Shown one piece after another: positions 1 through 11,507 of a DNA stretch of 26,824 nucleotides. This stretch comes from a virus (taxonomy: Duplodnaviria > Heunggongvirae > Uroviricota > Caudoviricetes). The stretch covers positions 1 through 26,824 of the IMG/VR virus record IMGVR_UViG_2671180673_000010. One strand, given 5' to 3'. The notes beneath the pieces are model-generated. The model saw nothing but the letters and a program-made list of their open reading frames with translations. It had not been told where the DNA came from and did no database searches. A program made the position numbers and the translations under genes. Each line of letters opens with the position of its first letter. Position 1 is the first letter of the stretch.

Positions 1-141
1 ATGGTCATCTGGAGCTTACAGGTGGCCATTCGTGGGACAGTATCCCTGACAGCCTACAAAACGCAATTGAAGAACGCGAGGCATCGTCTTAACGAGGCAC
101 CGAGGCGTCGCATTCTTCAGATGGTTCAACCCTTAAGTTAG
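1..141 (+). CDS. 3' end of an ORF entering from the left window edge (46 codons in frame 1, TAG at 139..141); product unknown
   Basis: Open frame from position 1 (MVIWSLQVAIRGTVSLTAYKTQLKNARHRLNEAPRRRILQMVQPLS*); below the ORF-track length cutoff; no recognisable motif; may be spurious. Confidence 0.25.
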   Translation: MVIWSLQVAIRGTVSLTAYKTQLKNARHRLNEAPRRRILQMVQPLS

Positions 142-321
142 CGCTTATGGGAGCAAATCCCCGCCTCATTAGAGGTCAACGTAGCTTAGAAACCATCAAA
201 TTCATCATACATTTTTTTCATATCAACCCCCTCATAGAAATCATAACCACGTTTTGTGGTTTTTGTGACGTATAAACTACATCAAAGGCAAGCCACGGTC
301 AAATATATAGGCATGCTTACC

Positions 322-420
322 TGCACAAAAGTGCACAAATTTGCACAATTTTTTTGAACGACTTTTTACCCTTCCGGCCCGCATGGCGGCTGGATCCGTC
401 AAGGATCCGTGCGTGCACAA
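322..420. repeat. Phased short direct repeats: TGCACAA at 322, 332, 342 (10-bp spacing) and 414; GGATCCGT at 392 and 403
   Basis: Read directly from sequence; helical-turn spacing within a long non-coding stretch suggests a protein-binding array. Confidence 0.5.
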
Positions 421-720
421 AAAAACGCGCTTTTTCTGCGCGCAGGTGACGGGGGAACAGCCCGCGTTTCAGGGGGTAAATAGCATTCCCTGAACGATGT
501 CGCAGAGACACAACAGAATGGCCATATTTCTCACGCTGAGCATGAAAAAGGCGTGAGGGCTTTTGATTTGATGGGGTGAAAGGTAAGGCCGTCAAAATCG
601 CACTGAGGCAGCGAGAACATGCAGTCAACGCGGTGGAATTGCGTAAGAGTCTGACCGTCGATGGTGGCGATAAACTGGAAGGCGTCGTGAAATTATCTGA
701 TTGATACAGGAGCTGGAGAG

Positions 721-747
721 CCGGGGCATAAATTTTTTATGCCCCGG
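721..747. repeat. Perfect palindrome ccggggcataaa-ttt-tttatgccccgg (12-bp stem, 3-nt loop), about 100 bp upstream of the 174-aa ORF
   Basis: Reverse complement of 721..732 equals 736..747; no flanking T-run on either strand, so more operator-like than terminator-like. Confidence 0.45.
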
Positions 748-847
748 CGAAGCAGCAGACAAGCGAAGCGCGTCAGCGATACGGCACCTTGCCGACCATA
801 CTTCATAAGTGCAAAATACGAGCAAAGAAATCAATGGAGGCTGTCTT

Positions 848-1372
848 ATGGTCATTAATTACAAGCAGTTAAGAGAAAAACGGGAGCAGGTAAAGGAGAG
901 CTTTCGCCGCAATGAAGATCTGACCCCGCTTGTACGCCTTGCCCAGGGCATTGTTGATGCTTATGAAATCTCGCTGGAGCTGCCATCACAGACCTGGACA
1001 GATAGCGACGGTAATCGCCAGCATTACGTTTCATGCGGACTGGAAGCAGCCGAAGGATTTCGCAGAATGCCTTTATCCCAGATCCCTGCCGCTACCCCCA
1101 AAGCACGGGGCAGCAATGATGAGCGAAAACTGACTTTTAGTATTGAAACGGTGGTTGACGACACACCTGGCGAAGTCGCGTTCGTGCACACTCCTGTTTC
1201 GATCGCAATGTATAACGATGAAATACAGGTTCGCGTTAATAATAATATCGTGCCACTTAAAGAAGGTAATTCACCCTACACCACCGTTTGTGAAGCCATT
1301 CAATATTACGTTCTCTCTGAAATTGATAATCTCAAGCCTGACGGCACCCAGAAAATGGTTCAACTCTGGTAA
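848..1372 (+). CDS. Hypothetical protein, 174 aa (ORF track gives 809..1372; ATG at 848 preferred because GGAGG lies 7 nt upstream)
   Basis: Long ORF with good SD, followed by hairpin terminator; AT-richer than flanking phage genes; no motif I recognise; convergent with portal gene Q. Confidence 0.6.
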   Translation: MVINYKQLREKREQVKESFRRNEDLTPLVRLAQGIVDAYEISLELPSQTWTDSDGNRQHYVSCGLEAAEGFRRMPLSQIPAATPKARGSNDERKLTFSIETVVDDTPGEVAFVHTPVSIAMYNDEIQVRVNNNIVPLKEGNSPYTTVCEAIQYYVLSEIDNLKPDGTQKMVQLW

Positions 1373-1375
1373 AAA

Positions 1376-1403
1376 GGACAGCCCCATCACGGGGCTGTTT
1401 TTT
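1376..1403. terminator. Bidirectional intrinsic terminator shared by the 174-aa ORF (+) and the Q-P operon (-)
   Basis: Stem acagcccc (1378..1385) / ggggctgt (1391..1398), loop atcac, T6 downstream on plus strand and T5 on minus strand; Q stop codon sits in the loop. Confidence 0.55.
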
Positions 1404-2433
1404 CATCAAGAAGAGCATAAGAGTTAAAACGGATCACCTCTTCGCCAAGCCAGTCATTGATGTGCTTCATAGCCTCCATAACGGGCATCAGCTCGTTAAT
1501 TGCGTAAACCCGCGCTGCCTTCTCCACATCGCCAAACGCACTTTTTTCGCCCGGCATCGCCCCCATCAGTTGCGGCGGAACGCGGTGCGCAGCCAGCACA
1601 TCATCACGGGATGCCGCCTTAACATTCATGAATTCATCTTTTGCGGTGATCTGCTGGAACGGCAAAATTTGCACCCCCTCTTTGCCCCCGTTGGGCGCAT
1701 GAATGAGCACGTTTTTAAACGCACCACCACCACGTGCCCCCTGTAGCGTTTCTTTCAGGGAGTCCATGCTTTCGCGGTTTACCTGCGCTGCACCGATGTA
1801 GATGATGCACCCGGCGTGGGATCCGTTGTCGTAGTACAGTTTTCTGAACATGTCCGCCGAATGAGAAAGGCTGGCCGAGAGTAATGCGCCAAGATATTCC
1901 GGCATGCCGTAGATTTCCTGGTTAATATCCGGATTCATCAGGTGGCACACTTTGCCAGGACGAAACTGGAACGCGTCCTTGCCATCCTGCACATACCACC
2001 ATGATTCAAGATCGCTTCCGCGTCGCATGTATTTCGCCAGGGCGTGCCGTAATTTAAGCGGTTCGCCGAGCATATTGCTTCGAAGCTCAAGGAATGCGTT
2101 ACCGAACACAAACCAGTCCAGCGCCAGCGCCGAGAAATCCTGCCGGGAAAGCAGCGGGTGCGGGATGTAGCAACCGAGTAATACATTGCGCTTAAAGTAA
2201 AGCGCAGACTGATGCCAGGACGTTTGCCGGGCAGCTCTTGCCAGACCGTACCAGCCCACCGGGGTTTCATACCACCGCCCGTTATCAGCACAGTACATAT
2301 TGTCCAGCAGGTCATGCCCGGTCAGGCGATAAGGACCATCAAATGTGAATGCACTGAGCGATGATTCTTTCCTGAGCGCATCAGCGAGATCAATGCGTGA
2401 ACTCATGCGCACTTTTTTATTTTTTCTGCTCAT
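1387..2433 (-). CDS. Q: Portal (capsid vertex) protein, P2 gpQ homologue
   Basis: 348 aa, position and size match P2 Q; start overlaps the stop of P; adjacent to terminase ATPase. Confidence 0.85.
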   Translation of the reverse strand: MSRKNKKVRMSSRIDLADALRKESSLSAFTFDGPYRLTGHDLLDNMYCADNGRWYETPVGWYGLARAARQTSWHQSALYFKRNVLLGCYIPHPLLSRQDFSALALDWFVFGNAFLELRSNMLGEPLKLRHALAKYMRRGSDLESWWYVQDGKDAFQFRPGKVCHLMNPDINQEIYGMPEYLGALLSASLSHSADMFRKLYYDNGSHAGCIIYIGAAQVNRESMDSLKETLQGARGGGAFKNVLIHAPNGGKEGVQILPFQQITAKDEFMNVKAASRDDVLAAHRVPPQLMGAMPGEKSAFGDVEKAARVYAINELMPVMEAMKHINDWLGEEVIRFNSYALLDEKTAP

Positions 2434-4184
2434 CAGAACTCCATAACCGTGAAACGCTCGTTTTCTCCTTCGCCGCCAATCGGTTCGTTAATGACAGCAA
2501 GCATGGTTGCCCACGCAAGGTCGCCGTGGCTGATCCCCCTCGCTCGGTCCGTTTCGTAAGTGATAAAGCCGCCCGGTGTTTTCACCTTACGCACGGCGTT
2601 AAAGGCCGCGACCAGCTCGCGTTCGGCGCGATCGTATTCCCACCGCCCGGCACGCATTATTTGCAGCATTTTCAGTACCAGCGACCGTTTTGATGACAGC
2701 GTGAAGGTGTACGGAATAGCAGCAGGGAAAAACCGCTTCACTATCTGATAAACAGCCTCCCCGTTCCCGCCCGTCACATCAATGCCGATGTGTTCCACGT
2801 TGTAGCGATACGTGAACTCTTCAATGACTCTGGCCTGTTCTTCAAACTCCAGCCCCTGAACGCGTCGCGTCTCCACCGTTCGAAAACGGCCACCAGGAAC
2901 AGCCGGAGGAACCACCACGGAGACAGCGCCGCTGTCGCCGTTGCCACTACTGCCGTTTGCGTCATACCCAATCCATACCGGACGATTCCCCATCGGGCGG
3001 GGAGCAAAAGGTTTCCAGTCTTTCCAGTCGTCGTATCCGTCAACACCGCAGCCAATCAGGATATTCAGGTTAAATGCCGATTCCCCTTCGCGGACAAACT
3101 CACACATATAGAGATTGAGGAACTCGTCTTCGGTGTTTTCATCACGAATTTCGTCGATATCGGTGTGTTTCCAGCCGTGATTAACCACATCTTCCAGCGT
3201 GACAATTTGCCGCCACGTCCGGTCAGGGCAGATAAGCCCGTTATGCAGCGTTTTCCAGTCCACAGAAAAACGCTGGCGTTTATGCGAGGCCTTTTTCTCG
3301 TTCCAGCGGTCGCCGTTCCAGTAGGCGTATGCCTCGTGCGTTTCGGTGGATGGCGTGGAGAAGTAGGTGCGCCGCAGTCCGCTGAGGGTTGCCATAGCGC
3401 CAGCCACCTTGCGCAGTTCAGCAAAGCGACTGACCCAGAAAAATTCATCAAAATAAAAATTGCCCGTATAGGACTGTGCCGACGCAGCAGAAGTGCCGAG
3501 AAAATGCAGCTCTGCGCCGTTGGAGAGGATGATTTTATCGCCCCCTTTCAGCTCCACATCAACTTCAGCCGCGGCCTTCTGAATAATGCTTTTAAACTGG
3601 AACGCCTGACGACGCGACGCAGACAAAAAAATCTGGTTACGCTGGTAAGGTTGCGCCACATCGTCACGCAGCGCCATCAGCAGTGCTTCCTGTGCAAAAT
3701 ACCAGGTCGCCCCAATCTGTCGGGATTTCAGGATCATCCTGTTACGTATCCCGGCTTCCCTGCAAAGGGTCAGGGAGTCAAACCAGCCCCGCTGATGCCA
3801 CTCCAGCCTGCTGATGATTTTTTCCCGCAGTGCGGCAATCTGTTCCGGCGTGAAATGATTTTTGAGTTTTTTCGCCCGGCCTTTCTTTCCTGCGGCCATC
3901 ACATCCGGCTGGCCATCATGCAGCTTTTTAAGCTGCCGGGTCAGCAGGTCTATTTCCTTAAAGTCACCGCCTGTTTTATTCTGTTTTTCAGTAAGCTGGA
4001 TGAGGCGCGCATCGATGGACTGCGTGACACGCTGCACGGGTGGCGTTTCATCCCACTGGTCACGTTTTTTCCACGCATAAATCGTGTTCGGGTTTATTCC
4101 CATCAGACGTGATATTTCTGCGGGCGGATAACCCTGCCAGTAAAGTTGCCGCGCACGCTGGCGCACAAAAGCGTCCTGAATCAT
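2433..4184 (-). CDS. P: Terminase large (ATPase) subunit, P2 gpP homologue
   Basis: 583 aa; divergent from O as in P2; size and synteny with Q, O, N, M. Confidence 0.85.
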   Translation of the reverse strand: MIQDAFVRQRARQLYWQGYPPAEISRLMGINPNTIYAWKKRDQWDETPPVQRVTQSIDARLIQLTEKQNKTGGDFKEIDLLTRQLKKLHDGQPDVMAAGKKGRAKKLKNHFTPEQIAALREKIISRLEWHQRGWFDSLTLCREAGIRNRMILKSRQIGATWYFAQEALLMALRDDVAQPYQRNQIFLSASRRQAFQFKSIIQKAAAEVDVELKGGDKIILSNGAELHFLGTSAASAQSYTGNFYFDEFFWVSRFAELRKVAGAMATLSGLRRTYFSTPSTETHEAYAYWNGDRWNEKKASHKRQRFSVDWKTLHNGLICPDRTWRQIVTLEDVVNHGWKHTDIDEIRDENTEDEFLNLYMCEFVREGESAFNLNILIGCGVDGYDDWKDWKPFAPRPMGNRPVWIGYDANGSSGNGDSGAVSVVVPPAVPGGRFRTVETRRVQGLEFEEQARVIEEFTYRYNVEHIGIDVTGGNGEAVYQIVKRFFPAAIPYTFTLSSKRSLVLKMLQIMRAGRWEYDRAERELVAAFNAVRKVKTPGGFITYETDRARGISHGDLAWATMLAVINEPIGGEGENERFTVMEF

Positions 4185-4338
4185 TGCTCCCCCTGAGTAA
4201 TTACAGGAAGATTACCCGCGCGCGAAACTGTTCTCCTTAACCCTCTGTTCTGACTGTTTTCTTACAACAAAAGCCCTTTGTATCAGCCTGTTACGCTTTG
4301 CCATCATGACTGAAGAACCAGTCAGAGGGGCAAAAACT
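4185..4338. promoter_or_regulatory. Divergent late-promoter region between P (leftward) and O (rightward)
   Basis: Synteny with the P2 PP/PO divergent late promoters; an exact TGT-N12-ACA activator box was not found by eye, so this is positional inference only. Confidence 0.35.
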
Positions 4339-5175
4339 ATGGCTAATGAAAAAAAGACATCCCGCAAAAAGTTTCGCGTGGCTGTCTCCGGATCAACTGT
4401 TGATGGCCGTGAAATCAGTCCGGTGCATCTGCGTGAAGCCGCCGAGAACTTCAACCCGGATGTTTACGCTGCCCGCGTGAACGTTGAGCACTATCTCTCG
4501 CCATGTCCGTCAAGCGAATTTTCCGCAATGGGCGATGTCACCGCACTGAGTACGGAAGACATTACGGAAGGTCCGCTGGCCGGACGTACTGCGCTGTATG
4601 CAGAAATCGAACCGACCGAGCGCATGAAGCAGCTTGTCGCTGACGGCAAGAAAATCTATTCCAGTATCGAACTGCACCCGCAGTTCTCCGTTAACGGGCG
4701 CGCCTATCTGGTCGGGCTGGCGATGACCGACACCCCGGCAAGCCTGGGCACTGAGCGCCTGAAATTCACGGCACAGCAACGTCAGGCGGTGATGACGTTC
4801 AACAGTATCCAGGGTGAAGCACCGCTTATCTCCGAAGCCATCGAGTCTGAAATCATCGAAATGGCAGAACAACGCCAGGAAGAAGGCACCCAGTGGTTTA
4901 ACCGCGTAATGGGGATTATTGGTCGTGGCCGCAAAGCGGATGACGCCAGTTTCTCCCGAATTCAGGAAGCGGTGGAAGGCGTTGCAACGTCACAGGCCGA
5001 CATTATCGACCGTTTTAATGTGCTGGAAACCCGCCATCAGCAGGACCGCCAGAAAATCACGTCACTGACCACAGAGCTGACAGCATTGAAGGAAAAACTG
5101 CGCACGCAGGACGGCGATCCGCAGAACCGCTTCACCGCAACGGGCGCAGCCTCCGACCAGCTGGCTGACTTCTGA
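4339..5175 (+). CDS. O: Capsid scaffolding protein, P2 gpO homologue (ATG at 4339 preferred over track start 4306; AGAGGGG SD upstream)
   Basis: N-terminus MANEKKTSRKKFRV... and central YLVGLAMTDTPASLGTE resemble P2 gpO (MAKKVSKFFR..., YLVGLAVTDDPASLGTE) from memory. Confidence 0.85.
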   Translation: MANEKKTSRKKFRVAVSGSTVDGREISPVHLREAAENFNPDVYAARVNVEHYLSPCPSSEFSAMGDVTALSTEDITEGPLAGRTALYAEIEPTERMKQLVADGKKIYSSIELHPQFSVNGRAYLVGLAMTDTPASLGTERLKFTAQQRQAVMTFNSIQGEAPLISEAIESEIIEMAEQRQEEGTQWFNRVMGIIGRGRKADDASFSRIQEAVEGVATSQADIIDRFNVLETRHQQDRQKITSLTTELTALKEKLRTQDGDPQNRFTATGAASDQLADF

Positions 5176-5198
5176 TAAGACAAAGGAGCAAATTTTTT

Positions 5199-6251
5199 AT
5201 GAATCTGGTGATGTCAGATATTACCCGCAACAAGCTGGGTTGCTATATGGCGCAGCAGGCGTCGCTTAACAATATCCCGGTATCTGCACTGGTATCGCGA
5301 TTTACCGTGGAACCCGCGGTGCAGCAGCGTTTTGAAAACGCCTCAAAGGAAAGTACCGAATTTACGAAAAGAATTAACGTGATCGGCGTGACCGACCAGA
5401 AAGGCGAAAAAATCCTCCTGGACACCACCGGGCCAATTGCGCGCACGAATAGCAGTTATGACGGCATCAAACGCCGTAACCCGAATAACGTGATCGATAT
5501 GAAGTCTCGTCAGTACCAGTGCGAACAGGTGAACTACGATACCTTTATTTCGTACCCACAGCTTGATACCTGGGCGGCCCACAGCGATTTTCAGTCCCGT
5601 ATCAGTACACAGATCGCCCGGCAGGTAGCGCTTGATCGCATCATGATTGGCTTTAACGGCACATCCCACGCCTACGAGTCTGATTTTCACACCAACAAGC
5701 TGCTTCAGGACGTTAACGTGGGCTGGCTGGAGCACATCAGAACCGATGCCAGCGAGCGCGTAATGAATGACGTGACGCTGACCTCCCGCAACATGGACAA
5801 CACTGTGGCGCACGCGGGTAAGTATGCGAATGCCGATGCTCTGGTACAGGATGCGCGCTCATCCCTGCTGGATGAATGGCACAAGGAAGCTGACGACCTC
5901 GCGGTGATTATGGGGCGCAACCTGTTTAACTCGCTGCGTCTGCCCGTGCTGAACAGCATCAGCGGCCAGAATCCCAATGCGGAATTACTTGCCGGGCAGC
6001 TCATCCTGTCATCGCGCACCATTGGCGGGCTGGGCGTGTTCCTTGCGCCGTTCTTCCCGGATGCAACGATGCTTATCACCTCGTTCAACAACCTGTCGAT
6101 TTACTGGCAGAAAGGTTCAATGCGTCGCCTGATGAAAGACGAGCCGGAATACAACCGCATCGCCACCTACCAGTCCATCAATGACGCTTATGTCGTTGAA
6201 GACTATGGCAAGTGCGCGATGGTCACTGGCCTGAAGTTCGCCGACAGCTAA
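5199..6251 (+). CDS. N: Major capsid protein, P2 gpN homologue
   Basis: 350 aa; AAGGAG SD 9 nt upstream; conserved stretches (FTVEP, GWLEHIR, YVVEDYG) match P2 gpN from memory. Confidence 0.9.
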   Translation: MNLVMSDITRNKLGCYMAQQASLNNIPVSALVSRFTVEPAVQQRFENASKESTEFTKRINVIGVTDQKGEKILLDTTGPIARTNSSYDGIKRRNPNNVIDMKSRQYQCEQVNYDTFISYPQLDTWAAHSDFQSRISTQIARQVALDRIMIGFNGTSHAYESDFHTNKLLQDVNVGWLEHIRTDASERVMNDVTLTSRNMDNTVAHAGKYANADALVQDARSSLLDEWHKEADDLAVIMGRNLFNSLRLPVLNSISGQNPNAELLAGQLILSSRTIGGLGVFLAPFFPDATMLITSFNNLSIYWQKGSMRRLMKDEPEYNRIATYQSINDAYVVEDYGKCAMVTGLKFADS

Positions 6252-6261
6252 TCAACTCACG

Positions 6262-6280
6262 GCGGGCATCATGCCCGCCT
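6262..6280 (+). other. GC-rich hairpin immediately downstream of the major capsid gene (ggcgggcat-c-atgcccgcc)
   Basis: Inverted repeat read from sequence; no T-run follows, so more likely a transcript stabiliser or processing element than a full terminator. Confidence 0.35.
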
Positions 6281-6296
6281 GTAACGGAGAGAAAAA

Positions 6297-7097
6297 ATGA
6301 TTACTCCTGCACAACAACACTGGCAGAACGTGATGGCACAGCGCGCAGGCCGGGCGAATGAAGGTGTGGACCACGCCGCGTGTACCGCGCATGAAGAGGT
6401 GCTGTATCGTCTGCGTCTGGCACAGGCCAGGCTAAAGGCCATACAGGCCAGAAGCGCGAAAGCCGCCATCAAAAAAGAGTTGTTGCCGGACTTTTCCGGC
6501 TGGATTGAGGGAACGCTGGAGGCTGACGGCGGGCAACAGGACGAAGTAATTGCCACGCTGATGGTGTGGGCGATTGACTGCGGCGATCTTCCGCTGGCGC
6601 TGCGTATTGGTGCATATGTGGTCCGTCACAACCTCATCATGCCGGATAACTTTGGCCGTACTGCTGCCACGGTACTGACCGAAGAAATCTGCAACCCGGT
6701 ACTGACGCAGGCTGGGACGGATGCCGACGCGGATTTATCCGCCTTTATCGAACCACTGGACACACTTTGGGAAATTATCGCCAACCAGGACATGCCGGAC
6801 GAAGTGCGCGCCAAATTATGCAAGGCGTGTGCCTTTGCCCGTCGTGGCCTGACCGATGCAGACAACATGGCCTCATCACTGAAGCTGCTGCGCGAAGCGA
6901 TGCACCTGAACCCGAACGCAGGTGTGAAACGCGAGATTGCAACCCTTTCCCGCGCCCTGAAAAAAGCCGATTCCGCAGCCGAACCAGAAGACGCCAGCGC
7001 ACAGCAGGCGCAGGACGAAAGCAGCAAAAGTAAAAAGACAACGCGGAAGCCTGCAACACGAAAAACCACCGCGACGCAGAAGGCAAAGCGCGGTTAA
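6297..7097 (+). CDS. M: Terminase small/endonuclease subunit, P2 gpM homologue
   Basis: 266 aa in the gpM position; Lys/Arg-rich C-terminal tail; GGAGAG SD. Confidence 0.75.
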   Translation: MITPAQQHWQNVMAQRAGRANEGVDHAACTAHEEVLYRLRLAQARLKAIQARSAKAAIKKELLPDFSGWIEGTLEADGGQQDEVIATLMVWAIDCGDLPLALRIGAYVVRHNLIMPDNFGRTAATVLTEEICNPVLTQAGTDADADLSAFIEPLDTLWEIIANQDMPDEVRAKLCKACAFARRGLTDADNMASSLKLLREAMHLNPNAGVKREIATLSRALKKADSAAEPEDASAQQAQDESSKSKKTTRKPATRKTTATQKAKRG

Positions 7098-7113
7098 CGA
7101 CTGACCCCGTCAG

Positions 7114-7184
7114 CGGGCGGCGTGCGCGGTGTTCCGGTTTGACTCCGTGACCGTTTACACCGCGCACCCACCGCCCGATTTTTT
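7114..7184 (+). terminator. Long imperfect hairpin followed by T6 between M and L; candidate attenuator or partial terminator
   Basis: Outer stem cgggcgg (7114..7120) / ccgcccg (7171..7177), inner stem gtgcgcggtg (7123..7132) / caccgcgcac (7158..7167), then atttttt. Confidence 0.4.
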
Positions 7185-7198
7185 CAGGAGTGAACCCC

Positions 7199-7693
7199 AT
7201 GAGTATGGTTGCCAGAACTAACCCCGGCCCCGCAGAGGACGACATCACCGACACCGATGATGGCGATACCCGTATTTCAGCGGGTGCATTCTGGCCGGAT
7301 ATTGTGCTGCGCGAGCTGCGTCTGGCGGTACGACTGCCGGGCCGCGTGACCACCTCCCGCCTGCTGCATACCGCCACCGGGGCCATAGCACACGTTACCC
7401 GCGAGCTGGAAGCATGGCAGCAGGAACAACAGGCGGCTGGCTATCAGACGCTGGCCGATGTTCCGGCCCCTGTAATTAACGGAGAAAGCGTCAATCTCTG
7501 GCACTGGCGCAATGCTGTTTATACCGCCACACGCGCCCTGATTCTGGAGCGTTACCGCGATGCGGACACAACGGACAAGGGCGACCGCCGGGCGGACGCA
7601 CTGGATATACAGACATCGGATTTGTGGCGCGATGTGAGCTGGGCCATCTCTGACATTCTGGGACGACCGCGAATGTTTGCGGAGCTGTGCTGA
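7199..7693 (+). CDS. L: Head completion/stabilisation protein, P2 gpL homologue (ATG 7199 preferred; track start 7190 is GTG)
   Basis: Size and position match gpL; CAGGAG SD 8 nt upstream; stop overlaps the X start (TGATG). Confidence 0.8.
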   Translation: MSMVARTNPGPAEDDITDTDDGDTRISAGAFWPDIVLRELRLAVRLPGRVTTSRLLHTATGAIAHVTRELEAWQQEQQAAGYQTLADVPAPVINGESVNLWHWRNAVYTATRALILERYRDADTTDKGDRRADALDIQTSDLWRDVSWAISDILGRPRMFAELC

Positions 7694-7893
7694 TGAAAGT
7701 GAAGGCACTGGAAGGCGACACCGTGGATTCGCTCTGTTTCCGGTACTACGGCACGACACAGGGCGTCACCGAAAAGGTGCTGGATGCCAACCCCGGACTC
7801 TGTCAGCAGGTATTTCTGGACGCCGGGCAGGAAGTGGAGATGCCGGAGCCGGAGAAGAAGAAACGAGAAATGATTCAGTTGTGGGGGGAGTAG
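7693..7893 (+). CDS. X: Tail protein X (LysM-like), P2 gpX homologue
   Basis: 66 aa, MKVKALEGDTVDSLCFRYYG... in the X position. Confidence 0.7.
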   Translation: MKVKALEGDTVDSLCFRYYGTTQGVTEKVLDANPGLCQQVFLDAGQEVEMPEPEKKKREMIQLWGE

Positions 7894-7895
7894 CA

Positions 7896-8219
7896 GTGAG
7901 CACCATTCAAACAGGGATCACAGAGCAGGTTATTGCGTGGCTCTTTGACCACCTGCCAACGGTGTATGCAGTAGGCGCGGCGGTCAGCATTTCCGCGCTG
8001 ATGAGTCTTTATGACGGACGAACACTGGTTCAGACCGTAACGGGATCGCTGGCGTGCGGCGTTCTTGCCATGGCCGTGGCCGGGTCGCTGCGCTTCTTCG
8101 GGATCCCTGAGGATGCAGTGACGTTTTTTGGTGCCTCAATCGGTTTTATGGGCGCAGAGAAAGCACGCGACAAGGTTATTGCAATATTTGATCGCAGGGT
8201 GAAGGAGAGGAACGAATGA
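7896..8219 (+). CDS. Holin (class I-like, three hydrophobic segments); GTG start
   Basis: GGGGGAG SD 5 nt upstream of GTG 7896; three hydrophobic stretches and a charged C-terminus (EKARDKVIAIFDRRVKERNE); position just upstream of the endolysin. Confidence 0.55.
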   Translation: MSTIQTGITEQVIAWLFDHLPTVYAVGAAVSISALMSLYDGRTLVQTVTGSLACGVLAMAVAGSLRFFGIPEDAVTFFGASIGFMGAEKARDKVIAIFDRRVKERNE

Positions 8220-8608
8220 GCAACACATTTAAATTCAGCAGCCGGAGCGAAAAGAATTTGCAGGGTGTAAATCCTGATCTGGTGAAAGTGACCCGACGGG
8301 CGCTGGAAATCTCGGAAGTGGATTTTGGTATCACCGAAGGATTGCGCAGTCGTTATCGTCAGAAGCAGCTCGTGACCACAGGCAAGAGCCAGACCATGAA
8401 CAGTCGCCATCTCACAGGGCATGCCGTGGATGTTGTGGCTTATGTCGGCAACCAGGTGTCATGGGAATGGCCGCTGTACGAAAAAATCGCAGCAGCATTC
8501 AGACAGGCCAGCCAGGAACTGAATATTCCGGTGGAATGGGGCGGCGACTGGAAGACCCTGAAAGACGGACCGCATTTTCAGTTACCACACGGAGCCTATC
8601 CGGCATGA
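8216..8608 (+). CDS. Endolysin, peptidase M15 family (L-alanyl-D-glutamate peptidase type)
   Basis: Zn-ligand-like motifs SRHLTGHAVDV and GPHFQL; start overlaps holin stop (ATGA). Confidence 0.8.
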   Translation: MSNTFKFSSRSEKNLQGVNPDLVKVTRRALEISEVDFGITEGLRSRYRQKQLVTTGKSQTMNSRHLTGHAVDVVAYVGNQVSWEWPLYEKIAAAFRQASQELNIPVEWGGDWKTLKDGPHFQLPHGAYPA

Positions 8609-9000
8609 AGCTCTGGCCCACGCTTGGCGTCGCTTTCCTTCTGATTACATCCATGCGTCTGTCGTGGTCGCTGGGCCGGGAGAACGCCAGAAACGAAGCG
8701 CAGGCCAGCACCCTGAAAAGTACCGTCGACACACTGAATATCATCAGCGCCGGGGTACAGGATATGCAGCAGGTGCTGGCTCAGCTCCGCGCGGAAAATC
8801 AGCAACGCAATCAGGACGGAGAGGTAAGACGTGAACAGCTACGCAACGATATTGCAAAAGATGAATGCGCCCACGCTTTGCCTGACGCTCGTTTTACTGA
8901 CAGGTTGCGCAGGCACGCAGAACGCGCCAGGGCCAGCGCCGTCAGTCCGGCTTATACCGCAGACGCTGACCATGCCGGTAACGCCTCCCCCCTTCCCTGA
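8605..9000 (+). CDS. Inner-membrane spanin (Rz / LysB-like)
   Basis: N-terminal signal-anchor MKLWPTLGVAFLLITSM, charged coiled-coil-like body; ATG overlaps endolysin stop; true start is inside track ORF 8461..9000. Confidence 0.65.
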   Translation: MKLWPTLGVAFLLITSMRLSWSLGRENARNEAQASTLKSTVDTLNIISAGVQDMQQVLAQLRAENQQRNQDGEVRREQLRNDIAKDECAHALPDARFTDRLRRHAERARASAVSPAYTADADHAGNASPLP

Positions 9001-9142
9001 CCCACCCACATGGGGAAACCTCGGAATATGGGGCGACCGCCTTCTGGATGCACTGGAAACCTGTAACGCGGATAAACGGGCCATTGCTGAACTGGATAAG
9101 AGAATAGCCGAACTGACACACCAGACGGGAGTAACACAATGA
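8861..9142 (+). CDS. Outer-membrane lipoprotein spanin (Rz1 / LysC-like), overlapping the Rz gene in another frame
   Basis: Lipobox LLTGC 15 aa after the Met, Pro-rich stretch PVTPPPFPDPPTW; starts inside Rz and extends beyond it as in P2 lysB/lysC. Confidence 0.6.
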   Translation: MNAPTLCLTLVLLTGCAGTQNAPGPAPSVRLIPQTLTMPVTPPPFPDPPTWGNLGIWGDRLLDALETCNADKRAIAELDKRIAELTHQTGVTQ

Positions 9143-11016
9143 CCAGTAAGAACTTTGCACTGATTACAGCCATGACACAGGCTGAACTGACTCAAAAGGT
9201 GAATGAACATCTTGCGAAAGGGTGGCATCTTCAGGGGGAGACGCGGGTTGCCTACGAACCCGGCACCCCGTGGTATCTAATGCAGGCAATGGTGGCCGAT
9301 GGCACTACAGACATCTCACCTGATTCCCCCCAGCACGGCAGCGTGCCGGAGTGGTATTACGTGGTGGTACTTGCTGGTCAATCCAATGCCATGTCATATG
9401 GTGAGGGAATGCCGCTGCCGGATTCTTACGATGCGCCCCACCCACGCATTAAGCAACTGGCCCGTCGCAACACAGTGACTCCCGGTGGTAAAGCATGCGC
9501 ATTTAACGACATCATTCCGGCAGACCACTGCCTGCATGATGTTCAGGATATGAGCGCACTGAATCACCCGAATGCAGACCTGAGCAAAGGGCAGTATGGC
9601 TGTGTCGGACAGGGCTTGCATATTGCCAAACGCCTGTTGCCTTACATTCCACAGAATGCCGGGATTTTACTGGTTCCATGCTGTCGTGGTGGTTCGGCAT
9701 TCACCCAGGGCGCGGAGGGGACATTCAGCGAGTCCACAGGAGCCAGTCAGGATTCGGCTCGCTGGGGTGTGGGTAAACCTTTATATCAGGACCTGATTTT
9801 GCGCACGAAGGCCGCATTGCAGAAAAACCCAAAAAACATGCTGCTGGCCGTATGCTGGATGCAGGGCGAATTTGACATGAGCGCCGCTACGTACTCACAG
9901 CAACCTCCGCTGTTTACGGCCATGCTGAAACAGTTTCGTGCGGACATTACCGAGTTTAACACGCAGTGTCATGGAGGCAGAGCGGCAAGTGTGCCATGGA
10001 TTTGTGGTGACACGACGTATTACTGGAAAAACACCTACGGCACGCAGTACGACACCATTTACGGGGCGTACAAAAACAGGGAGAGCGACAACGTTTTCTT
10101 TGTGCCGTTCCTGACCGATGGTAGTGGCAACAATACCTCCACCAACGCACCAACGGAAGATCCGGATGCTGCAAGTGAGGGATATTACGGTTCGGCATCC
10201 CGAACGAACAAAAACTGGGTATCATCAAATCGCCAGACGCATTTCAGCTCATGGGCGCGTCGTGGCATTATTCCCGATCGTATGGCAACCGCTATTCTGA
10301 ACGTAGCCGGTCGCACCTTAGCCTTCATCAGTGGTAAGGCACCGGAAATCAAACCCTCGCCCGGCGGCGACACGCCATCGGGGCCGTCTGAAGATGCATC
10401 CGTACGCACAATCTCCCTGTTGCCGACAGCCGGAGATGCTGCTGCGCAGGGCTGGAGCATTAAGAATGGCGGAATTCAGTTGTCAGAAGGTGTATTTAAG
10501 ATCACCAAGCAGAGCAATAAAGCCTGGTCCCTGACGCGCCCGGTGGATGACGCAGTCTCCCTGCTGACACGGGGTGGCAGACTGAGCTGTAAGTTTCGAC
10601 TGTCAGGCGCACTGACCAACAAACAGTTCGGTCTGGGAATTTATCTGTATACCGATGTAGCGTTACCTGACGTCGTGGCGATGACCGGGACTGGTAACCC
10701 GTTCCTGATGTCGTTCTTCACCCAGACCACAGACGGCAAACTGAATCTGATGCATCACAAGAAAGCAGGAAACACAAAGTTGGGCGAGTTCGGGAATTAC
10801 AGTAACGACTGGCAGACGCTGGAGCTGGTGTTCACCGCCGGCAGTGCCACGGTTACTCCGAAACTGAATGGAGTGGCTGGCCCGGCATTCCAGGTCATAA
10901 AAGACAGTCTGACACTGGGGCTGAATGCGCTGACGTTAACTGATATCACTAAAAATGCCGCGTACGGCGTCGATATCGGCAGCCTGGTGCTGGAAATCAA
11001 TAATCCCGCAGCATAA
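9139..11016 (+). CDS. NanS-p-like sialate O-acetylesterase (SASA/SGNH-type) with small N-terminal domain and roughly 250-aa C-terminal domain
   Basis: VLAGQSNAMSYGEG (GQSN catalytic-Ser motif) and CWMQGEFD; N-terminal roughly 50 aa resembles DUF1737; start overlaps Rz1 stop (ATGA). Confidence 0.6.
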   Translation: MTSKNFALITAMTQAELTQKVNEHLAKGWHLQGETRVAYEPGTPWYLMQAMVADGTTDISPDSPQHGSVPEWYYVVVLAGQSNAMSYGEGMPLPDSYDAPHPRIKQLARRNTVTPGGKACAFNDIIPADHCLHDVQDMSALNHPNADLSKGQYGCVGQGLHIAKRLLPYIPQNAGILLVPCCRGGSAFTQGAEGTFSESTGASQDSARWGVGKPLYQDLILRTKAALQKNPKNMLLAVCWMQGEFDMSAATYSQQPPLFTAMLKQFRADITEFNTQCHGGRAASVPWICGDTTYYWKNTYGTQYDTIYGAYKNRESDNVFFVPFLTDGSGNNTSTNAPTEDPDAASEGYYGSASRTNKNWVSSNRQTHFSSWARRGIIPDRMATAILNVAGRTLAFISGKAPEIKPSPGGDTPSGPSEDASVRTISLLPTAGDAAAQGWSIKNGGIQLSEGVFKITKQSNKAWSLTRPVDDAVSLLTRGGRLSCKFRLSGALTNKQFGLGIYLYTDVALPDVVAMTGTGNPFLMSFFTQTTDGKLNLMHHKKAGNTKLGEFGNYSNDWQTLELVFTAGSATVTPKLNGVAGPAFQVIKDSLTLGLNALTLTDITKNAAYGVDIGSLVLEINNPAA

Positions 11017-11039
11017 GGAAGAGCAGGAGAGCAAAACAG

Positions 11040-11507
11040 ATGCTTAAGACAAACAGTCTGCGAGAGTCCATGCTTCATGGGTGTCGGTGGTGCCAGGCTA
11101 ATCCCGAGAAATTCACCATTTTCGTGGAGAGCGGCAACATTGAAACGACCGGAGAAGCGCCCTCGTTTGTTTACCGCTATCAGATGGTGATGTTTGTCAT
11201 GGATTACGCCGGAGAGCTGGACGACCTCACGCTGCCGCTGCTGGCGTGGTTATCCGAAAATCAGCCACAGTTGTTGCTCAATCCGGAGCGTAATCAGGAC
11301 ATCAAATTTTCTGCCGTTATCAATGACGATGACAGCGCCGATCTCCTGTTTACGCTCCCCCTGCGGGAACGCGTTCGCATCACGCGCAACAGTCAGGGCA
11401 CACCGCAGGCAGAACACCTGCCGGAGCCAAAACCCCGTCTGCCTTCTTCCGAAGGCGACTGGTCGCATGTATTCCAGGATGTGACGTGGGGTGAAAGCGA
11501 TGGATAA
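11040..11507 (+). CDS. R: Tail completion protein, P2 gpR homologue
   Basis: 155 aa, same length and position as P2 R. Confidence 0.8.
   Translation: MLKTNSLRESMLHGCRWCQANPEKFTIFVESGNIETTGEAPSFVYRYQMVMFVMDYAGELDDLTLPLLAWLSENQPQLLLNPERNQDIKFSAVINDDDSADLLFTLPLRERVRITRNSQGTPQAEHLPEPKPRLPSSEGDWSHVFQDVTWGESDG

Follow-up and report, generated by a model that had tools for sequence, protein, structure and literature searches.

The window, by which we mean the whole stretch of viral DNA analyzed (26,824 nucleotides; IMG/VR record IMGVR_UViG_2671180673_000010), opens with a region that raises a simple question: what do short, evenly spaced repeats do in an apparently gene-free stretch beside the structural genes of a phage? 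A preliminary description had placed positions 1–808 at the P2 cos/old-tin cargo hotspot and had offered a packaging-recognition site, an operator for the gene downstream and replication iterons as possible roles. We found the window to be a P88-like prophage (Xuanwuvirus, Peduoviridae) of the P2 family. Positions 149–1400 show identity with many E. coli ST131 chromosomes, and the segment from 322 to about 780 is 93–95% identical to P88-like phages. In RefSeq, an identical chromosome gives the order gpA replication endonuclease, ParM, partition protein, two cargo genes, IS421, a 174-aa hypothetical gene, portal, large terminase, scaffold, capsid and gpM. The stretch has replication gene A, parM/parR and cargo on its left, with the ParM and partition protein genes about 2.8 kb left of the repeats, and portal, TerL, scaffold, capsid and gpM on its right. 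The gpA–gpQ interval next to cos is an accessory hotspot (Rousset et al., PMC9122126), and this together with the gene order bears out the proposed location. The repeats also lie, as first stated, on the left side of the portal gene (1387–2433, minus strand), but they do not adjoin it: the 174-aa gene (848–1372), an extra insertion between the cos module described below and the portal gene, intervenes. This gene is absent from P88 and most relatives, in which the portal stop codon follows directly after the cos module. As expected of cos in the P2 family, the region is noncoding, follows the 3′ end of portal gene Q and is bounded on its other side by gene A with its accessory hotspot.

The stretch at 1–808 is a mosaic of an IS end, a target duplication, a cargo tail and a cos module. 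Positions 1–148 (plus strand) are the right end of IS421, an IS4-like element of 1337 bp; these terminal 148 bp include the inverted repeat ...CAACCCTTAAGTTAGCGCTTAT, lie outside the phage feature and by themselves have thousands of matches across E. coli genomes. The junction was located by comparison with an uninterrupted copy (locus L002), and the RefSeq transposase CDS stops 22 bp before the window start. What had been taken for a short ORF fragment ending at 141 (46 aa, 1–141) is actually this right end, outside the transposase CDS. The right copy of the 13-bp target-site duplication, GGGAGCAAATCCC, follows at 149–161 (no strand assigned). The insertion point lies inside a hairpin, GGCGGGGA-GCAAA-TCCCCGCC, which reads as a minus-strand intrinsic terminator of the intact phage. 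The right-hand tail of the variable cargo module (162–321, minus strand) contains what remains of the split terminator, a mini-ORF of 11 codons and a promoter-like site (−35 at 269–264, −10 at 245–240) that points leftward, towards the DUF4760 cargo genes; this segment is common only to copies with the same cargo. At the other end of the region, the segment 781–847 upstream of the 174-aa gene came in together with that gene.

The statement that the stretch holds no credible ORF proved correct. RefSeq annotates nothing under 322–780, and no codon periodicity was found in any ORF of 317–855. The 42-aa ORF at 576–704, which is annotated in P88, has 23, 18 and 15 variable sites over the three codon positions and contains a frameshift or stop in 6 of 67 distinct copies. 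An Rfam scan of 1–1500 returned no match at E ≤ 1, and consensus folds of 466–760 and 300–470, computed for both strands from sequences that are very similar, contained few compensatory pairs, with only four for the right arm described below.

The motif TGCACAA occurs at 322, 332, 342 and 414, always on the plus strand and with the first three copies (322–348) at exactly 10-bp spacing, and GGATCCGT occurs at 392 and 403; a direct sequence check confirmed all six positions first reported. Over the whole window TGCACAA shows no enrichment (6 seen vs ∼7 expected), and four of the six copies fall within 99 bp. The triple array greatly exceeds what chance would give: a 7-mer repeated three times at a constant spacing of 10–11 bp appeared in none of 5000 dinucleotide shuffles of 149–808 and in one of 300 whole-window shuffles. 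An 8-mer pair at 10–11 bp appeared in 2.3% of the region shuffles and 51% of the whole-window shuffles, and the GGATCCGT pair, taken alone, is not significant. The pair is nevertheless near-invariant in 67 distinct P88-like copies and specific to the P88-like group. It sits in the spacer that leads from the distal array to the proximal repeat (358–413, plus strand), at a place where other lineages hold GGCGCGGTCTGA..GGATCGG-like sequence, and it is the form that this semi-conserved part of the spacer takes in the P88 lineage. The third repeat is immediately followed by a T-run, TTTTTTTGA (349–357, plus strand), which is also present in phiT5282H and Klebsiella lineages and has accumulated 0.001 substitutions per site per sequence in the 67 distinct P88-like copies. 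The proximal, fourth TGCACAA is followed by an A-run (together 414–424, plus strand) and then by the GC hairpin ACGCGC-TTTTTCT-GCGCGC (425–443, minus strand). With the A-run, the hairpin reads as a minus-strand terminator-like element.

The hairpin lies directly left of the sequence that we take for the cos site. No match to the P2 19-mer pattern, from exact to three mismatches, was found in the window. In a MAFFT alignment, however, positions 445–463 (plus strand; GGTGACGGGGGAACAGCCC) fall in register with GGCGAGGCGGGGGAGCAAG of a Klebsiella relative, which starts like the P2 sequence GGCGAGGCGGGGAAAGCAC. Aligned through such intermediate relatives, the window sequence shares 13 of its 19 nucleotides with P2, which makes it a GC-rich 19-nt relative of GGCGAGGCGGGGAAAGCAC and a candidate cosN equivalent with predicted nick positions. 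It is invariant in the 67 distinct copies, in which the 19-mer with its flanks (440–480) is the least variable part of the cos module. We scanned 80 loci, retrieved via their portal protein (56–100% identity), for a cos-like match; almost every locus had a single one, 240–375 nt beyond the portal stop, or 815–975 nt beyond it in loci with an insert, as in the window. The Enterobacter phage phiT5282H shows 74% identity, confined to 322–466, and the repeats are also present in a Klebsiella phage-like replicon. From the alignment and these positions, we infer cleavage at or near 445–463. The measured ends of Ralstonia phiRSA1 are GGTGAGGCGGGGTCCAAC and start GGTGAGGCGGGG (PMC5694545), so a GGTGA start has precedent. 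For Serratia BZS1, a 12-nt overhang, GCATTGCGCGCC, has been predicted that is displaced relative to 186 (PMC7556043), and nick positions vary among P2-like phages. We consider it very probable that the segment from 322 to about 778 is the cos module of a P88-like, P2-family prophage.

No phage record in the collection starts at the predicted cos. The P884B11 record starts at window position 367 and 500465-2 at about 190, and both starts look arbitrary; the record named vB_EcoM-569R5 is a chromosomal excerpt with host genes. The record of phage Chuche has a 7-nt gap inside the 19-mer, the sole hint of cohesive ends among the records. We found no description of the cohesive-end variant seen here in the literature compared, and no mention of cos in the P88 paper.

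The arrangement of the repeats around the 19-mer is shared well beyond the P88 lineage. Counted from the first base of the 19-mer (window 445), TGCA lies at −123, −113, −103 and −31 in the window, at −123, −111, −101 and −29 in P2 and at −124, −111, −101 and −29 in both P4 and 186. Among 66 distinct helper cos regions, TGCA was present near −123, −113, −103 and −31 in 76, 76, 94 and 98%, respectively, at a background of 0.0013 per nucleotide, these being counts of nonindependent events since the compared loci are related by ancestry. The proximal TGCA falls within −35..−28 in 98% of the 66 regions, neighboring distal motifs are 10 bp apart in the helper regions wherever they were detected, and the third and fourth repeats are separated by 72 bp in 53 of 62 regions and in P2, P4 and 186. 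The sequence of the spacer has diverged (median ungapped identity 0.41), but its length is kept. The motifs of P2, P4 and 186 are of the TGCAT type, with TGCATTAAAA as the proximal one at −29, and a hairpin of different sequence, CCGCCCCGTGAAGCGGGCGG, occupies the same place; other lineages have weaker hairpins there. The first or second repeat is degenerate in some lineages. In the 67 distinct copies, few sites of the module vary less than the second and third repeats and the T-run, whose variability is similar to that of the cos 19-mer.

How much of this arrangement belongs to the packaging signal? A 55-bp core common to P2 and P4 cos, reaching from the proximal TGCA to GCGCGC right of cos, is named as the packaging-relevant region (Ziermann & Calendar 1990, as cited in PMC5694545, PMC3931495 and PMC9594776). 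Window positions 414–466 show the same components, TGCA with an A-run, a hairpin, the 19-mer and GCG-rich bases to its right, in the order and at the offsets of P2, P4 and 186; within this shared architecture, the hairpin sequence has diverged. As the core begins at the proximal TGCA, the fourth repeat (414) marks the left edge of its homologue and the triple array lies outside.

The extent of conservation argues for a larger unit. The cos module is present in 1,142 of 5,426 complete E. coli genomes (21%), in 1,101 of them at a coverage of at least 80%, and across 67 distinct copies its homology extends from about 322 to about 778, with the distal array as its left border. In the helpers, loci share no related DNA to the left of the first repeat, and the terminator of a rightward cargo gene often abuts that repeat. 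In 65 distinct P4-like satellite regions, which represent the P2/186 (TGCAT) class, a block of psu, repeats and cos is kept, with similarity ending at +26, the start of the satellite hotspot. Conservation in helpers and conservation in satellites thus overlap from about −125 to +26. Our main argument is that this interval is given up by neither kind of element, which suggests that the array forms part of the packaging signal. Satellites having a P88-type arm were not seen in complete E. coli genomes, in which almost all matches span the whole of 322–780, nor among viral-contig matches to the cos core, all of which are helper phages with a portal gene.

To the right of the 19-mer, conservation is of a different kind. 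The noncoding right arm (464–719, no strand assigned) shows conservation among P88-like phages alone and has a G-run, GGGGG, at 472–476 just right of cos and small islands of conservation at 530–540, 590–600, 640–650 and 690–700. It is followed by a perfect hairpin with 13-bp arms, GCCGGGGCATAAA-TTT-TTTATGCCCCGGC (720–748, minus strand), which has no T-tail. In P88 and its relatives this is the place at which the portal operon ends, with the P88 portal stop just to its right, and by position it is the equivalent of P2 tQ. The last conserved bases of the cos module are at 749–778 (no strand assigned): there the homology to phages without the 174-aa gene ends, and gaps rise from about 775.

In our proposal, the left arm of the packaging signal consists of the repeats, three distal motifs and a proximal one exactly 72 bp on, beside the hairpin. 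The four TGCA-type motifs would face the same side of the helix and be read together by the terminase, as a single nucleoprotein assembly, either through its small subunit, gpM, or through the helix-turn-helix at the N terminus of its large subunit, gpP. The 72-bp spacer would be bent or looped, and the distal array would help to position the nuclease at cos, as in lambda cosB. In terms of domains, gpP has an N-terminal helix-turn-helix (Terminase_5, residues 6–63) and gpM belongs to Phage_term_smal, which makes both candidate binders of the motif; between the motif classes the two proteins have diverged to a similar degree (42–44% identity for gpP, 35–37% for gpM), and the comparison favors neither as the reader. 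The best reading of the repeats is as the distal part of a terminase recognition site of about 150 bp, cosB-like in function, and the arm may serve either initiation (cosB-like) or termination (cosQ-like). A cos module whose repeats are a left arm read by the terminase is probably the right explanation of the locus, and, taken as a claim of its own, a function of the repeats in packaging is favored somewhat over its absence. The packaging reading in the preliminary description is accordingly the one that gained support, from the fixed position and spacing of the repeats relative to the cos homologue in helpers and satellites alike; the check that had been proposed against the feature, for relatives without repeats or a frameshifted gene under the region, also came out in its favor. 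Published cosmid data fit this reading: transduction of P2 cosmids, which may or may not have differed in array content, was 0.035 with longer cos flanks vs 1.7e-5 with shorter ones, a difference of about 2000-fold (PMC9594776). More tentatively, the distal triplet of TGCA motifs, set exactly 72 bp from the fourth, could be an essential and overlooked part of the cos of all P2-family phages and P4-like satellites, a suggestion that we consider possible but doubtful; it would put the functional site at about 150 bp (−125 to +26) and not 55 bp.

Several other roles were weighed against packaging. It seems unlikely to us that the distal array has an architectural or insulating role, for instance by bending the DNA intrinsically or by binding a host nucleoid protein, with packaging left to the 55-bp core. 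The literature does name that core, which holds only the fourth repeat (PMC3931495 and PMC5694545), and in the P88 lineage the repeats come with A/T runs (AAAA, AAATTT, AATTTTTTT) that could bend DNA, but P2, P4 and 186 keep TGCA at the same offsets without A-tracts, and the array is retained in satellites that have little else in common with helpers. The ∼2000-fold transduction gain from longer cos flanks of unspecified array content (PMC9594776) also speaks against confining the signal to the core. A further candidate role is the control of the neighboring cargo genes, with the array as their promoter or as another regulatory element. In P2, old-tin transcription starts at −150/−152 from cos, which puts its −35 region at about the first TGCA motif, so that the promoter abuts the first repeat, and the window itself has the leftward promoter-like site at 269–240. 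Yet many loci (for example, P88 and L020–L023) transcribe their cargo towards cos, with a terminator hairpin abutting the first repeat; the cargo varies by locus while the array is constant, and in P4-like satellites the array adjoins psu, away from the variable genes. Since the orientation of the cargo varies, a promoter cannot be the general role of the array, and we regard this reading as improbable. We give little credence, too, to the idea that the repeats persist by common descent and as the right-hand homology arm for cargo exchange, with no sequence-specific function. All compared loci are related, the array is the border of the hotspot, and recombination at cos-adjacent DNA has been proposed by Rousset et al. 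(PMC9122126), so the sharp left border could mark a place of recombination and not selection for packaging. Descent and recombination do not readily explain why motif positions and the 72-bp spacing persist over a spacer at a median identity of 0.41, why the motif itself is class-specific (TGCAT vs TGCACAA) or why repeats 2 and 3 and the T-run vary so little.

The two remaining roles named in the preliminary description fared badly. Phased direct repeats, with ParM and a partition protein encoded nearby, might suggest replication-origin iterons or the parC centromere of ParM/ParR, a reading that we hold to be very improbable. The annotated origin of 186 is inside gene A, and P4 has its ori at 9086–9809 and its crr at 4291–4590, with other repeats, and yet both carry the array next to cos; iterons were rejected on these grounds. 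The position of the array follows cos and not parM. It is present in P2, 186, P4 and phiT5282H, with no ParM annotated in the stretches examined, and parC was rejected as well; in the window prophage, cargo genes lie between parMR and the array. An operator for the 174-aa gene, suggested by repeats that lie upstream of the gene and on the same strand, is to our minds close to excluded: P88, phiT5282H and many relatives have the repeats without the gene, about 500 bp separate the two, with cos and the strong 13-bp-arm hairpin in between, and the gene has its own upstream segment at 781–847, acquired along with it. A C/Cox operator was also considered: the repeats between C and cox differ, and no TGCACAA array was found elsewhere in the prophage, the C/cox control region included.

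The feature is of a known kind, the cos of a very common prophage, and what is added, and may be new, is the geometry of three repeats plus one common to helpers and satellites. About a fifth of complete E. coli genomes carry the block without annotation; a cos label would improve prophage annotation and clarify where the accessory and defense cargo of P2-like elements starts and ends. On the more tentative reading of the distal motifs as an essential part of cos, the left edge of the signal would fix where the antiphage cargo hotspot can begin. Should the distal repeats be needed, the usable packaging signal of P2/P4 cosmids would be about 150 bp vs 55 bp, which would account for the gain in transduction by orders of magnitude with longer flanks, and the repeats would predict which satellites exploit which helpers.

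Known packaging sites resemble the proposed one to differing degrees. The pac site of SPP1 consists of pacL and pacR, repeated boxes around the cut site that are bound by the small terminase G1P. It resembles the window in having short direct repeats in helical spacing and A/T tracts beside a terminase cut site, a predicted one in the window. Its boxes are bound by TerS, whereas binding is a proposal here, and SPP1 is a headful (pac) packager without cohesive ends, unrelated in sequence and proteins.

The cosB of lambda combines the gpNu1 sites R3, R2 and R1 with an IHF site, I1, next to cosN, on the side that is packaged first. The likeness is in the layout: copies of a motif on one side of the nick, one of them proximal and the others across a spacer. 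Such a layout would suit a complex of protein and bent DNA that sets the nuclease in place, but this is an analogy and not membership, as the sequences are not similar and the terminase subunits come from different families. Inspecting the spacer by eye, we saw no convincing IHF consensus.

The closest relatives are the cos sites of P2, 186 and P4, which have 19-nt 5′ cohesive ends. The ends of the P2 type are known, whereas those of the P88 type are predicted from the sequence. The 19-mer differs from that of P2 at six positions, the hairpin is unrelated in sequence to those of P2, 186 and P4, and GCGCGC to the right of the 19-mer is reduced to GCG in the window. The right arm measures about 310 bp here and about 170 bp in P2, P4 and 186, and the motif is TGCACAA at exactly 10 bp in the window but TGCAT(G/T) at 12–13 and 10 bp in the other three. 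What the window and these three have in common is the genomic place, between gene A with its cargo hotspot and the portal gene, the order of TGCA with an A-run, hairpin and cos, and the three TGCA motifs upstream, 72 bp from the proximal one.

The P4-like satellites (L210-L289) place a very sharp limit on the right-hand side of the shared cos signal. Between +19 and +26, counted from the first base of the predicted cohesive-end 19-mer (window 445-463), conservation stops abruptly within 1-2 bases of ...CACTGCGCGC, and unrelated cargo starts immediately past the conserved end. The deposited genome of phage Chuche (L290, PP925824.1) is missing 7 nt, GGGAACA, at about 385-400, a gap that falls within the predicted 19-nt cohesive-end sequence; in 67 other copies this 19-nt sequence is invariant. 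The gap may have arisen during assembly, at the physical ends of the DNA, and such an artefact would fit cos lying at the predicted 19-mer.

From cos to the tQ-like hairpin (720-748), the P88-like phages carry ~250 bp of conserved non-coding DNA (window 464-719), the conservation of which is specific to this group, arranged in islands and accompanied by a few compensatory pairs. The 42-aa ORF annotated within this segment in P88 showed no coding constraint. Farther to the right, an inserted segment at 781-1398 separates the cos module from the portal gene and holds a 174-aa gene (848-1372, phrog_5091), the product of which gave no matches in Pfam or PADLOC. The gene has a GGAGG ribosome-binding site of its own, and its terminator, at 1378-1398, is bidirectional. 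As this gene is inserted between cos and portal, and P88 and most relatives lack it, window 781-1398 forms a second cargo slot on the right side of cos.

On the left, two cargo genes are read leftward, one encoding a DUF4760 protein and the other a product of 280 aa for which PADLOC gave a weak Csx27-like match (E=1e-5). Upstream of them, the minus strand of window 162-270 has a leader-like layout, which begins with a promoter-like site whose -35 element lies at 269-264 and whose -10 element lies at 245-240. A Shine-Dalgarno sequence with an 11-codon ORF (MKKMYDEFDGF, about 216-181) comes next, and then a strong intrinsic terminator, which leaves only ~20 nt to the start codon of the DUF4760 gene. 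The segment could be an attenuator or produce a separate small transcript. The terminator hairpin ahead of the DUF4760 gene is the insertion point of IS421 (1337 bp plus a 13-bp target duplication; window 1-161, 4799-6161 in the P88-like prophage locus L001), which cuts off both cargo genes from their presumed promoter region and is missing from most ST131 copies.

Among the compared records, ON470599.1 (L291, 'Escherichia phage vB_EcoM-569R5') contains, within 1-11400, the host genes ycaO, focA, pflB, pflA and dmsABC ahead of the integrase; it is therefore an excerpt of a chromosome and not the genome of a virion. In P88-like prophages, gene A is directly followed by genes for ParM and a partition protein (L001 2033-3311), and a related 32-kb Klebsiella element was deposited as a plasmid (L006, CP052639.1), together hinting that some members are maintained as phage-plasmids.
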